Source: Planctomycetota bacterium
Lineage (GTDB): Bacteria; Planctomycetota; UBA1135; UBA2386
Reading direction: 5' to 3'
Assembly: GCA_965228735.1 (NCBI GenBank)
Contig: OZ245838.1
Coordinates: forward strand, 1,760,001-1,824,000
DNA: 64,000 nt
Numbering within the stretch: the stretch's first letter is position 1; each line of letters opens with the position of its first letter. Below the pieces are notes generated by a model, which was not told the origin of the DNA, did no database searches, and saw only the letters and a list, made by a program, of their open reading frames with translations. Positions 1 through 4,157 of the stretch are shown one piece after another. A program made the position numbers and the translations under genes.

Positions 1-323
1 CGCGCACGGACAGCGAAGGCGCGCTGCACATCAACCCGGCCGACTTCAACTCGGCGGGCCTGCTGCACCAGTACGGCGGCATCTGGCGCAGCGACCTCGA
101 CACCAACCAGCTGAGCGCGCAGTTCACGCCGGGCGGCGACTACGACTGCACGGCCACCGTGCTGACGCTCGACCGCGACGGCGGCGCGACCCAGCTCGGC
201 GAGACCGAGTTCGACTTCCTCGTCGGCAAGATGTTCCGCGAGGGCCTGCACGTCGGCGCGGGCTACGCCGTCGACGACGACGCCCGTCAGGTCGGCTACG
301 CTCAAATCACGCTCTACTTCTGA
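1..323 (+). CDS. 3' part of an outer-membrane beta-barrel protein (porin/alginate-export-like), partial
   Basis: Frame starting at nt 3 is open to TGA 321-323; amphipathic strands ending ...QVGYAQITLYF (beta-signal with terminal Phe). Absent from the ORF track because its start is outside the window. Confidence 0.65.
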   Translation, partial: RTDSEGALHINPADFNSAGLLHQYGGIWRSDLDTNQLSAQFTPGGDYDCTATVLTLDRDGGATQLGETEFDFLVGKMFREGLHVGAGYAVDDDARQVGYAQITLYF

Positions 324-353: not shown

Positions 354-719
354 ATGAGCAACTCGTTCTGCGTCACGATCACCGAGTGCAAGAGCAACCC
401 CGACAAGGCGACCGTCGGCTTCGTCGTCGCCAACGCTGCGCTCGGCAGCGAGAAGGACACGATGGTCTTCCTCAGCGCGGACGGCGTGTGGGCCGCCGTG
501 ACGACCGAGATGGAGAAGGTCGAGGCCGGTGAGCCGTTCCTGCCGCTGCGCGAGCTCGTCCAGAAGTTCATCGGCGCCGGCGGCAAGGTCCTCGTCTGCA
601 CGCCGTGCATGAAGAAGCGGCAGATCACCGAGGACATGCTCGTCGACGGCGCGACGCCGGCCGGCGGCGCCGCGCTCGTCGAGTGGCTCTCGAACGGCTC
701 GCCGAGCGTCGGCTACTGA
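354..719 (+). CDS. DsrE/DsrF-like sulfur relay protein
   Basis: GGAG SD at 344-347 before ATG 354; motifs VFLSADGV, GGKVLVCTPCMKKR, GGAALVEW. Confidence 0.85.
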   Translation: MSNSFCVTITECKSNPDKATVGFVVANAALGSEKDTMVFLSADGVWAAVTTEMEKVEAGEPFLPLRELVQKFIGAGGKVLVCTPCMKKRQITEDMLVDGATPAGGAALVEWLSNGSPSVGY

Positions 720-729
720 GAGGCCGACC

Positions 730-1485
730 ATGCTGAGCCCCGACGAACTCCGGGCAATCGAGCCTGCCACCGTCTTCGACGGCGGCGCGCTCGATTGCGG
801 CTCCGGCCTCGTGCTGCTCATTCGCGAACGGATGACGGAGGTGCCGCCCGGCGCCGTCCTCGAGATGAAGAGCTTCGAGCCGACCGTCCGCGACGACCTG
901 CCGCCGTGGTGCCGCATGGTCGGGCACGAGTTCCTCGGGGAGCTGCCCGGCGACGCGGCGCGGCAGGCGCGCTACTTCGTCCGCCGCGGCAGCGGCGAGG
1001 CAGCGCAGGAGGAGACCGCGGCGCTGCAGACCGACAAGGACCGCGCCCGGACCTACGAGTGGCGGCTGCGCGCCCGTTCGTCGGCGCCGCTCGTGACCAC
1101 CGTCTACTGCCGCAACTTCCAGTGGCAGGTCGGCCAACCCGCGAGCTTCGAAGAACGCGACGAGCATCCGTCGGCGGTCGAATCCGCGCTCGGGGCGCTC
1201 GCCGCCGATCTCGTGACGGGCTTCGCGGTCACGTGCTCGCGCGAGGGCCTCGAGGTCGACGACATCGAGCTCACCGCGAAGGGGCGGCTGCACGACGTGA
1301 CCGCGCACCTCGGGATCGGCGACGGCGACCCGGCGTTCGCGGCGATCCAGATCAAGCTGTTCGCGTCGACGTTCGCGGACGAAACCCGCGTGCGAGCGGC
1401 CTGGGACGCGACCGTCCGCCGCTCGCCACTCGCGTGCACGCTGCGGCGCGCCACCGAACTCACCACCGGCATCGCCATCGTCTGA
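730..1485 (+). CDS. TusA/SirA-like sulfur carrier fused to an OsmC-like domain
   Basis: N-terminal FDGGALDCGSG...DLPPWCRMVGH (TusA-like); C-terminal PSAVESALGALAAD...VDDIEL...RRSPL (OsmC-like fold). Confidence 0.8.
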   Translation: MLSPDELRAIEPATVFDGGALDCGSGLVLLIRERMTEVPPGAVLEMKSFEPTVRDDLPPWCRMVGHEFLGELPGDAARQARYFVRRGSGEAAQEETAALQTDKDRARTYEWRLRARSSAPLVTTVYCRNFQWQVGQPASFEERDEHPSAVESALGALAADLVTGFAVTCSREGLEVDDIELTAKGRLHDVTAHLGIGDGDPAFAAIQIKLFASTFADETRVRAAWDATVRRSPLACTLRRATELTTGIAIV

Positions 1486-1497
1486 GGAGAAGAGAAC

Positions 1498-2649
1498 ATG
1501 TTCGACGTGACCCAGGTCGGCAGCTGGCCGCGCTCCCGTGACCTGCTGCGCGCGCTGCGCGACAAGCAGCAAGGTCGCATGACCGCCAGGGAGTTCGATG
1601 CCGTCGCCGACGGTGAGGTTCGGCGCTGTGTCGCCCATCAGGTCGACGCTGGCGTCGACGTCGTCGTCGACGGCGAGCAGCGGCGTGACAACTTCTACTC
1701 CTTCGTGACCGACAAGCTCGACGGCACGCGGCTCATGTCGCTCGCCGAGATGCTCGACACGGTCGAGGACAAGGCCGCGTTCGAAGAGATGCTGTCCACG
1801 CTCGACGTGCCGGCGTCCGCGATCCGCAACCCCACCTGCGTCGGCAAGCTGCGCCGCCGCGAACCGCTGGCCGTCGACGAGCTCAGGTTCGTGCAGCAGC
1901 TCACGGACAAGCCGGTGAAGATCTCGTTGCCCGGGCCCTACCTGCTGACGCGGGCGATGTGGGTCACGGCGCACTCGCGCGACGCCTACGACGACAAGAC
2001 CGCGATGGGCGACGACGTCGTCGACATCCTGCGCGCCGAGCTCACGGAGCTGCGCGACGCGGGTGCGGCGTTCGTTCAGTTCGACGAGCCGGTCCTCACC
2101 GAGATCGTCATGAGCGAGGAAGCCGACCGACGAACGTTCATGTGAGCCACCCTTGCTACCCGCCGTGATGCGGGTGCCGAACTCGAATACGCCGCGGAGC
2201 TGCTCAACCGGGTCGTCGACGGCATCGACGGGGTCCGGACCGGGCTCCACGTCTGCCGCGGCAACTGGAGCCGCCAGGAGGACGTTCTGCTCACCGGTGA
2301 CTACCGCGCCCTGCTGCCCGCGTTCACTGCGATGCACGTCGATCAGTTCGTGCTCGAGTACGCGACGCCGCGCGCCGGCGAGCTGGCCGTCGTGGGGCAG
2401 GCGCTGGCCGACCGCGAGCTCGGCCTCGGCTGCGTCAACCCGCGCACGGACGAAGCCGAGGACCCGGCGACGATCGTCGCGCGGGCCGAGGAGGCGCTCG
2501 CGTTCTTCCGACCCGAGCAGATCTTCCTCAATCCCGACTGCGGGTTCGGATGCTTCGCGAACCGATGCGTGAACGAGGAGGACCACGCGGCCGCCAAGCT
2601 GCGCTCGATGGTCGCGGCCGCGCGCGAGCTGCGGGACAGACACGGCTGA
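1498..2649 (+). CDS. Cobalamin-independent methionine synthase family (single-barrel MetE-like) protein, 383 aa, with in-frame UGA at codon 216; probable selenoprotein
   Basis: ORFs 1498-2145 and 2332-2649 share one frame. Reading through TGA 2143-2145 gives ...RRTFM-U-ATLATRRDAGAELEY...GLHVCRGNW... Motifs VGSWPR, DGEQRR, QFDEP, H251-x-C253, E287, PDC348GF. Confidence 0.9.
2146..2185 (+). promoter_or_regulatory. Putative bacterial SECIS element
   Basis: Stem ACCCGC(2158-2163)/GCGGGT(2170-2175), loop CGTGAT, extended by GC/GC pairs with a bulged T2157; the loop begins after an 18-nt spacer from the UGA. Confidence 0.75.
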
Positions 2650-3251
2650 TGAGCGAGACCGACGAACCACAGGATCCACGCACGGTGCGTGCGCTGGCCG
2701 ACGCCGAGAGGCTCACGGGAACGCCGTGCGGCGGCTGCAGCGCCACGCTCTGCGGTCACGACGCCGTGTTCTCGCTCGTGCTGGGCTACAAGAACGCGGC
2801 CCGGTGCCTCCGCTGCATCGCGGCTCACATGCGCGAGCCGCTCGCGGATCTGCGCGAGCGCACGCTCGACTACGTCCGCCACCACGAGTGCTTCCTCGCG
2901 GCCTGGCATCGCGCCGGCGAACGCGAAGGCTTCGGGCCGGTCGAGCGCCCGGCGTGTCTGTGGGGTATCGCAGCCGCAGACCGGTCCGCGCTCCCCGCGC
3001 CCGCCGACGACCCGCCGGCGGCCGCGCCGCTTCGCGACGACGTCGCGAGCTGGGACGCCGGCGACATGGGCTGTGGCGACCTCGTGCTCGAACTGCGACT
3101 GCGCCTGCGCGAGCTGCCCCCCGGCGGCCTGTTCGATCTGATCGCGACCGACCCCGGCGCACCCGTCGACATTCCGGCGTGGTGCAACCTGACCGGTCAC
3201 ACGCTCGTGGCGCAGCAGCACCCGAGCTATCGCATCCGGCGGAAGAGCTGA
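2649..3251 (+). CDS. Cys/His-rich N-terminal domain fused to a C-terminal TusA-like domain
   Basis: TGATG overlap with the upstream stop; CGGC-x4-CGH, CLRC, HHEC; C-terminal WDAGDMGCGDLVLELR...DPGAPVDIPAWCNLTGH. Confidence 0.8.
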   Translation: MSETDEPQDPRTVRALADAERLTGTPCGGCSATLCGHDAVFSLVLGYKNAARCLRCIAAHMREPLADLRERTLDYVRHHECFLAAWHRAGEREGFGPVERPACLWGIAAADRSALPAPADDPPAAAPLRDDVASWDAGDMGCGDLVLELRLRLRELPPGGLFDLIATDPGAPVDIPAWCNLTGHTLVAQQHPSYRIRRKS

Positions 3252-3254
3252 GGG

Positions 3255-4157
3255 CTACTTGTCCGGCTTCTTGCCCGCCGTGCTGCCCGCGCTCCCGGGC
3301 TTCCGGCCAGGCACGCTGCCCTGCCGGCGCAGGTACTGCTCGAGGGCCTGCAGGCGTTGGAACAACTGCGCGTTGTCCTGCTCGAGTTTCTGCAGCCGCT
3401 GCTGCACCTCGCCGGACGGCGGCGGCGGCTCGCGCGGCGGCAGGTCCGCCGCCTCCAGAAGCTGCAATGCGGCGGCAACCATGTTCTGAGGCCCGGACAA
3501 CAGCAATGAATTCTCGTTGCCGACGTTCCCGATGATCAGGTTGCCCGCGCCCTGGCCACCGGATTGCGCGAAGAACGGCCGCAACGCGTTGTTCGCGATC
3601 GCGGCGTTGATGTGTTTCGTGGCGCACGCGACCGTAACGTGCAACCGCAGGGTCGGCCGCGCCAGGACCTCCGCCGGTGACCGCTGCACCGCCCGGGTGA
3701 CGATCTCGCGACTCCGCGGCCCGTTCATCGACAGGACCTCGTAGACGCCCTTCGGCTCGTCGATCGGCACGAGCGCGAACCCGTACGACCACAGCACCCC
3801 GGTCAGCAGCTCCTCGCACCCATCGGCATCCGTGACGACCGGGATCTCCAGGTTCACGACCGGCCCCATCGGGCCCTGGGCCGCCGGCGCTGCCGGTCGA
3901 GCCCGCCCACGCCGCACGACCGCCCCGCCACCCTGCGCGAGCGCCATCTGACCGCCGTCGAACAGGATGTTACGCTGCAGGTACGCCGCACACCGGTCCA
4001 CGAGCTCGACGAGCTCGATCTCGCCCGCTTCGAACACGAACGGCGCGCGGTCCGCCGGCCCCTTCGCCGACTGGACGGCAGGATCCTGAGCGACGCCGGC
4101 GCACGGCGTCAGCAGCGCGCAGAGCACAATCCGGTGCACGATGGTGATCGGGTTCAT
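3255..4157 (-). CDS. Exported protein with secretin N-terminal-like (N0/N1) domains and no barrel
   Basis: Signal peptide; ELVELVDRCAAYLQRNILFD; KHINAAIANNALRPFF...NSLLLSGPQNMVAAALQLLEAAD resembles Secretin_N; C-terminal coiled coil. Confidence 0.6.
   Translation of the reverse strand: MNPITIVHRIVLCALLTPCAGVAQDPAVQSAKGPADRAPFVFEAGEIELVELVDRCAAYLQRNILFDGGQMALAQGGGAVVRRGRARPAAPAAQGPMGPVVNLEIPVVTDADGCEELLTGVLWSYGFALVPIDEPKGVYEVLSMNGPRSREIVTRAVQRSPAEVLARPTLRLHVTVACATKHINAAIANNALRPFFAQSGGQGAGNLIIGNVGNENSLLLSGPQNMVAAALQLLEAADLPPREPPPPSGEVQQRLQKLEQDNAQLFQRLQALEQYLRRQGSVPGRKPGSAGSTAGKKPDK

Follow-up and report, generated by a model that had tools for sequence, protein, structure and literature searches.

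A 64,000-nt stretch of a Planctomycetota bacterium genome (contig OZ245838.1, positions 1,760,001 to 1,824,000 of the forward strand; hereafter, the window) contains four adjacent plus-strand open reading frames (ORFs) encoding a DsrE-family protein, a TusA-OsmC fusion, a single-barrel MetE-fold enzyme and a Cys-rich domain fused to a second TusA domain. The third gene carries an in-frame UGA that is very likely read as selenocysteine (Sec). The enzyme is predicted to represent a new family of selenoproteins, encoded in a putatively Sec-sensing operon and undescribed in the searchable literature. With moderate confidence, we propose that the operon is a selenium-scavenging module that would be switched on when Sec is short, with the enzyme demethylating methylated selenium compounds without a corrinoid and the TusA and DsrE proteins carrying selenium towards SelD.

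A predicted selenoprotein on a single MetE-like barrel

Translation with table 11 stops the enzyme gene at 215 amino acids, and the Meth_synt_2 match spans residues 4-376 only when the UGA is read through. Among the best 120 of 7992 protein homologues, the UGA column was Cys in 119 and a gap in one. Genome searches confirmed 86 loci, of which 80 were retained, in a scan biased to close relatives; at the UGA codon these had TGA (67 loci, across several phyla), TGC (nine) or TGT (four). A hairpin with a 5-6 bp stem followed the UGA in 67/67 UGA loci but in only 1/13 Cys loci, and the 18-nt hairpin present in all 67 has fixed synonymous positions. The loop of this putative Sec insertion sequence (SECIS) begins 18 nt downstream of the UGA and carries G-U at its positions 2-3. 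Moreover, the hairpin in the window lies within all four limits given for SECIS elements in Fig. 2A of PMC13188914 (a 3-9 nt loop with an early G, a 4-16 bp stem, a spacing of 16-37 nt and a minimum free energy of at most -7.5). Folding after the enzyme UGA gave weak z-scores against shuffled sequences (-0.7, -1.9 and +0.6), so the SECIS case rests on conservation and not on energy. The host genome encodes selA, selB, tRNA-Sec (selC) and selD, and SelD itself contains Sec.

Because the homologues have Cys at this position, UGA and a fixed SECIS recur in 67 of the 80 loci and selABCD are present, the UGA is very likely a Sec codon. The table 11 stop would be expected if the UGA were a true stop and the gene a pseudogene or split gene; we give this a negligible probability, considering the same TGA codon and fixed hairpin in several phyla, the selenium genes of the host and the fact that all Zn ligands of the enzyme are encoded downstream of the UGA. 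At three more distant loci (L142, L144 and L145), UGA occupies this column too but is accompanied by another hairpin, which suggests a second origin, and in a tree from a quick search only, six Cys forms were nested among Sec forms, which suggests reversion from Sec.

A 2026 catalogue of prokaryotic selenoproteins (PMC13188914) lists no PF01717 family among the 119 families of its Table 1, and no seleno model of NCBIfam matched the enzyme. Literature searches, largely of openly accessible papers, returned nothing on the enzyme family or the operon. A regular expression for SECIS sites of this kind lacked specificity when applied to the whole genome. Outside the window, a UGA at 3694905 on the minus strand of G000:C1 marks another candidate selenoprotein. 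Its ORF looks secreted or lipoprotein-like and contains a U-G-H-C motif in what by eye resembles a heavy-metal-binding domain, and a hairpin resembling the SECIS of the enzyme follows.

Price et al. 2021 (PMC7857596) defined seven Zn-ligand and homocysteine-binding residues of core methionine synthases. The Zn ligands H251, C253, E287 and C348 and the homocysteine positions E60 and D196 were present in 121/121 alignment rows, and the homocysteine position S9 in 118/121, with gaps in the others. A fold model built from the alignment reached a predicted local distance difference test (pLDDT) score of 88.4, compared with only 39 for a single-sequence fold of a homologue. Residues 211-220 scored about 51, and the loop holding residue 216 is probably mobile, to judge from this low-confidence part of the model. 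Foldseek matched it to MetE catalytic barrels and MesD (PDB 4ZTX, 1XDJ and 3RPD), with template modeling (TM) scores of about 0.73-0.76 over the query and approximately 20% identity in the structural alignments. Sec216 sits 14 residues past E202, a residue aligned with the E-G-L-P stretch of MetE. In MetE this stretch contacts methyl-folate, so the loop is probably turned towards the side of the active site that receives the methyl donor.

The enzyme scored below every NCBIfam cut-off, and it lies outside the families of MetE, split MetE, MesA, MesB/MesC and MesD. It has 383 amino acids compared with at least 676 for two-barrel MetE, lacks the N-terminal barrel and scored 97.8 versus 930 bits with TIGR01371. 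No PF08267 partner of a split MetE was found in the 93% complete genome (control positive in 9/14). Scores with PRK04326 (182.8, cut-off 406) and PRK00957 (99 versus 258 bits), the latter presumably the MesA-type model, were also low, and the host is a bacterium, whereas MesA is defined by close similarity to METE_METTM and a methanogen host. PF03599, for the CoFeSP proteins (AcsC/AcsD) associated with MesB/MesC, was not found in the genome (control positive in 4/14). For MesD, the match to 3RPD was 54.5 bits with 19% structural-alignment identity, versus about 55% required. The MesX model PF08908 matched nothing in the genome, and its control also matched nowhere. There was no NCBIfam match to epoxyalkane:CoM transferase, and among the neighbours scanned, coenzyme M genes stood beside one locus alone (L066). 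MtaA (4AY7), representing the SdmABC and type 1 mlp methyltransferases, gave a TM score of 0.43, with MetE barrels remaining best, and no corrinoid protein was found among the conserved neighbours.

A conserved operon and its predicted thiol carriers

The features of the operon are collected in Table 1. The intergenic gaps are 10, 12 and -1 nt, and the start codon of the last gene overlaps the stop codon of the enzyme as TGATG. The DsrE start lies 30 nt downstream of the end of a same-strand porin-like gene, which is probably the first gene, so that the unit would comprise five genes. A homologue of this porin in L014 had a weak Alginate_exp match (2.8e-5). A convergent minus-strand gene (3255-4157), whose end is 3 nt away from the last stop codon of the operon, matches Secretin_N weakly and is apparently unrelated.

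Table 1. Features of the operon and its upstream region (window positions unless a contig is given)
Feature	Position	Strand	Details
Sec leader upstream ORF (uORF) of the porin gene	G000:C1:1758827-1758955		UGA at 1758869; outside the window
Outer-membrane porin-like gene, 3' end	3-323	+	429 aa whole; start G000:C1:1759034, 966 nt 5' of the window
DsrE-family protein	354-719	+	Pfam PF02635, 4.6e-13; C82-T-P-C85
TusA-OsmC fusion	730-1485	+	OsmC 1.5e-6; TusA 6e-4 (below cut-off)
Single-barrel MetE-fold enzyme, 383 aa, predicted selenoprotein (U216)	1498-2649	+	Pfam Meth_synt_2 (PF01717), 2.4e-34
In-frame TGA, predicted Sec216	2143-2145	+	Sole in-frame TGA of the MetE-like ORF; Cys column in homologues
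Predicted bacterial SECIS hairpin	2158-2175	+	6-bp stem, 6-nt loop, -9.5 kcal/mol
Cys-rich domain fused to second TusA domain	2649-3251	+	Pfam TusA, 2.3e-9

An earlier reading of this DNA, made from the letters alone (the sequence-only reading), had described the four genes with these domains and gaps, and ORF calls and Pfam searches bore it out. It had also proposed an uncharacterised pathway linking TusA and DsrE proteins to a single-barrel MetE-fold enzyme, a proposal that would have fallen if the genes did not co-occur in other genomes. They do, which supports this part of the reading. DsrE and TusA-OsmC adjoined the enzyme in 57/60 UGA-form loci for which 1.5 kb or more of sequence was available upstream, and DsrE adjoined it in 33/36 loci of a sample from the host phylum (32 Cys and four UGA forms; the distant homologues L168 and L169 were excluded). 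Therefore, the operon is real and conserved and not a chance association. Five of the six UGA genomes without DsrE and TusA-OsmC nearby hold a DsrE orthologue elsewhere, each beside both TusA genes. In 13/36 phylum-sample loci, the TusA domain of the second gene is even fused straight to the enzyme (Pfam check on L150). A TusA domain of the last-gene type was present in 58/67 UGA loci, and the Cys-rich domain in 13/67 UGA loci and 17/36 phylum-sample loci.

The accessory genes varied. In the phylum sample, a transglutaminase-like gene was found in 23/36 loci and a porin in 18/36. A second arrangement, with a stand-alone OsmC gene and ACAD-like and substrate-binding-protein (SBP)-like genes, occurred in 7/13 Cys loci and in 5 to 7 of the 67 UGA loci. 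The leader and operon of the same-family genome G171 were the same as those of L035. The transglutaminase-like protein accompanying the cassette (L150:3955-5052 and 22 other loci) looks secreted and has conserved C211, H251 and D267.

Restriction of the carrier cassette to the Sec form was suggested by 0/13 Cys loci and 0/13 Cys genomes with a DsrE orthologue. This idea was dropped, as the first scan was biased to close relatives and DsrE adjoins the enzyme in 30/32 Cys-form loci of the phylum sample.

Regarding the carriers, the C82-x-x-C85 motif of DsrE was invariant in 92/92 matched loci, and the protein is predicted from its sequence to be a sulfur or selenium carrier or a redox partner. 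The TusA domain of the second gene has invariant C23 and C61, and that of the last gene keeps two cysteines, in C-G and P-x-W-C motifs. OsmC/Ohr peroxidases have two conserved catalytic cysteines, whereas the OsmC-like domain of the second gene had no invariant Cys across 106 matched loci. None of the TusA and DsrE proteins contains Sec.

The Cys-rich domain contains C27, C30, C35, H37, C53, C56, C81 and C103 and matched no known family; an Atlas search gave none. Its metal-binding appearance, the AhpD/CMD-type gene following in L038 and the frequent role of Sec as a soft-metal ligand (PMC13188914, section 7) would suit demethylation of methylmercury or methylarsenic in which the metal or metalloid is bound by Sec/Cys216 and the carriers. 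We consider this highly improbable, since it leaves unexplained why Cys forms are restricted to genomes with SelA, why UGA leaders exist and why the amino-acid site is intact; moreover, no recurrent mer or ars genes were found among the clustered neighbours.

Other neighbours include Sec-lyase-like desulfurases and a binding protein related to a putative selenate SBP (below cut-off). In L021, L023 and L029, a LysR gene resembling the selenium-associated family replaces the leader at the operon head, upstream of the cassette (268 bits in L029, cut-off 250; 214 bits in L021). Downstream of the enzyme in L015, L017 and L026 lie genes for TusE/DsrC, for an Fe-S protein resembling DsrK/HmcF and for a cysteine desulfurase whose score is Sec-lyase-like. 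In L066 (2954-4650), a Cys-form homologue with rhodanese and OsmC genes stands directly upstream of XcbA and ComA of coenzyme M biosynthesis. A Cys/Met pyridoxal phosphate enzyme of the lyase family (L135:3048-4406) lies directly upstream of an OsmC-SBP-enzyme-ACAD operon and could be a source of methylselenol from selenomethionine.

The selenium trait and UGA-containing leaders

Of the 80 genomes that supplied the scan loci, SelA was detected in 77, among them 13/13 with Cys forms. In a 251-genome sample of the host phylum, SelA was present in 38/38 genomes whose homologue reached at least 42% identity, compared with a background of 187/251, and none of the 64 SelA-negative genomes carried the enzyme (the two tables were matched by eye). 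G144, which has only distant homologues, was not among the SelA matches. All ten Verrucomicrobiota-titled loci were SelA-positive. In the phylum of G006, by contrast, SelA was found in 13/221 genomes and the enzyme in G006 itself only, where it groups with Verrucomicrobiota in the tree. A Chloroflexota-centred sample (4/4 versus a background of 151/201, the latter including the unpublished genomes G714, G579 and G711) was consistent and uninformative.

Conservation of all seven core-synthase residues (PMC7857596) would also be expected of a fifth Mes family, that is, a selenium-independent, folate-free methionine synthase or sulfur-relay enzyme to which the carriers supply methyl groups or sulfur and in which Sec merely speeds catalysis. 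In addition, the host has no other PF01717 gene, and the same holds for three near-complete genomes that lack a MetH-type domain. However, the Cys forms are restricted to SelA genomes and carry UGA leaders, a MetH-type domain was found in 57 of the 65 carriers tested, and the host genome has MetH. Both enzymes are missing from G076, which belongs to the genus of those three genomes and is 100% complete, implying that the genus makes methionine otherwise, and no methionine riboswitch was found in 11 Cys-form loci. We therefore regard a fifth Mes family as quite unlikely.

The leader uORF of the host has 14 codons ending in Y-T-UGA, followed by 27 further codons to a second stop located 78 nt before the porin start. 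The alignment of ten porin-type leaders shows a long hairpin with covariation (87% of cells paired, nine pairs changed on both sides, 0/500 shuffles as high) and an invariant hairpin with a GGUC loop. A model of this leader type gave nine matches in 41 genomes, all directly before the porin family; four of them were new and had the UGA in frame. In the spacer of these leaders, C exceeds G in 10/10 loci, which would suit Rho. Leader-like uORFs also precede the Cys-form operons L141, L146, L149, L151, L161 and L167. The strict leader detector missed classes ending in F/Y-T-UGA; this motif was counted at 14/100 heads, versus 0.012 expected per 550 nt. One leader, at L145:1918 onward, has two tandem in-frame UGAs with a hairpin after each and heads a porin-transglutaminase-cassette operon.

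Where a stand-alone OsmC gene heads the operon, the leader UGA overlaps its start codon as start-NN-TGA in 11 of 13 visible cases (seven Sec-form and four Cys-form). The SECIS of these leaders falls within the coding sequence of OsmC. Read-through would continue for 14-37 codons and stop out of frame, and a Shine-Dalgarno motif is absent in 10/11. The T creating the overlapping UGA is kept under five different amino acids, in genes with 16% T at third positions. Two of the 11 OsmC frames (L041 and L050) look degenerate. Because the leader UGA overlaps the start codon of the first gene in 11 loci, the simplest reading implies re-initiation after termination, which would turn expression on when Sec-tRNA is short. 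For the porin-type leader of the window, this direction is assumed by analogy. Taken together, the tracking of SelA by the subfamily, even in its Cys form, and the putatively Sec-sensing leaders point to selenium over sulfur.

Possible selenium salvage and its relation to known systems

A role in selenium acquisition, by whatever reaction, is probable. Selenium salvage is our best reading because a probable operon of selenium starvation here has a porin, thiol carriers and a methyltransferase fold with a Zn homocysteine site. Among the roles listed in the sequence-only reading, methylseleno salvage fits best, given the SelA tracking of both forms, the Sec-sensing leaders and the MetH-type domain in most carriers; poorer fits are a general sulfur relay, selenium detoxification and an ordinary way of making methionine without folate.

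In the proposed mechanism, termination at the leader UGA for want of Sec-tRNA would allow re-initiation and expression, and Sec read-through, running out of frame, would turn expression off, as the 11 sister loci suggest. The porin and accessory proteins would import or release an organoselenium compound, and methylselenol or selenomethionine would bind the Zn site. Speculatively, Sec/Cys216 might accept the methyl group in a ping-pong reaction, doing the job of the corrinoid in SdmABC/Mlp, and might then pass it to Zn-bound homocysteine to yield methionine. Selenide would depart on the cysteines of TusA and DsrE, towards SelD. This specific chemistry, with ping-pong transfer via residue 216 and selenide taken by TusA and DsrE, is tentative. 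Equally tentative is the wider proposal of widespread cobalamin-free mining of methyl-selenium, with the Cys/Sec loop as a covalent methyl carrier, TusA and DsrE as selenium acceptors and a ribosome-based Sec sensor made of UGA and SECIS.

Selenium might instead be acquired without methyl ping-pong, with the carriers reducing or holding inorganic or other organic selenium and the enzyme capturing it on an amino-acid scaffold, or cleaving another alkyl-selenium bond, through the Zn/homocysteine site and residue 216. The SelA profile and the leaders fix the selenium link and not the reaction, and the variable accessory genes (ACAD-like with SBP-like, transglutaminase-like, porins) would agree with such a role. 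Nevertheless, the invariant Ser/Glu/Asp triad and Zn ligands of methionine synthases fit methyl chemistry on homocysteine and methionine, and we consider this alternative unlikely.

Several points weigh against selenium salvage under Sec shortage. SelA was not found in three of the 80 genomes, all with UGA forms and of unknown completeness; related genomes are not independent, hence no p-value is given; and among the loci examined, neither selD nor selA was noticed next to the operon. No leader is seen at two visible OsmC-headed operons (L077 and L135), and none was detected at many other heads: a relaxed detector found leaders in 29/100 heads versus 90/2000 control windows. One Cys-form locus (L066) adjoins coenzyme M biosynthesis genes. 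A Sec enzyme induced by Sec shortage is a paradox, which the fact that SelD is itself a selenoprotein softens but does not remove. Moving a methyl group without a corrinoid, off a selenoether or back off methylated Cys216, is chemically demanding, and the salvage chemistry is inferred from sequence. Furthermore, the leader of the window has no intrinsic terminator, no sigma-70 promoter was found there, and the accessibility of the start site shows no consistent change.

As the terminator and accessibility checks reveal no direction for the window's leader, and the Sec form can be made only when Sec is available, the operon might be on when selenium is plentiful and methylate carrier-bound selenide for detoxification or storage. 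This is improbable: in 11 loci, the overlap of leader UGA and start codon predicts regulation the other way round, the leader is shared by a porin of the uptake type, and no methyl donor partner was found in the host genome.

Compared with known systems, the enzyme shares with the C-terminal barrel of MetE and with MesA-D the fold, the Zn ligands (H-x-C, E and C), the S/E/D homocysteine triad and the absence of a folate-binding half. It differs in the extra invariant Cys/Sec216, the TusA and DsrE partners, the TusA fusions and the tracking of SelA, and no CoFeSP or N-terminal half of MetE was found in the host genome. The trp/his type of leader-peptide attenuation or translational coupling likewise uses a short uORF with a sensing codon at the operon head; here, the sensing codon is UGA with a SECIS, and in one class the output would be re-initiation at an overlapping start codon. 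The literature search returned nothing describing attenuation by a UGA and SECIS leader.

Selenium depletion induces SdmABC and tus-type genes in Methanococcus (PMC11097638), and type 1 mlp clusters were proposed to recycle methyl-selenide into methionine (PMC10418091). These Zn methyltransferases, like the predicted one described here, belong to the UroD/MetE superfamily and are enriched in genomes with Sec (mlp 87%), and release of selenium from methyl-selenides and recycling of the methyl group to methionine have been proposed for them (PMC11097638; PMC10418091). However, they are MtaA-like and work with a corrinoid protein, whereas this operon has no corrinoid protein and its enzyme keeps the MetE amino-acid site, with a Cys/Sec loop and TusA/DsrE partners. 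By analogy, we propose that the operon works like Sdm/Mlp methyl-selenide salvage, yet it belongs to neither system and to no Mes family. Candidates for selenium metabolism include YedF and LysR_Se (PMC9312934). The operon resembles such TusA/YedF- and DsrE-type carriers in its TusA and DsrE domains with invariant cysteines, with LysR_Se preceding L029, and differs in coupling or fusing them to a MetE-fold enzyme.

According to PMC13188914, no high-affinity selenium transport system is known in prokaryotes and the in vivo selenium donor to SelD is unresolved. The operon supplies candidates for this gap, namely the porin, the carriers and the putative demethylase, and would add a selenoprotein family on a fold outside the current catalogue as given in its Table 1. 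The subfamily is present in 38 of the 251 genomes sampled from one phylum. If the proposal holds, a corrinoid-free counterpart of Sdm/Mlp would bear on the environmental recycling of methylated selenium, and the leader would offer a direct genetic test and possibly a natural reporter of Sec-tRNA.

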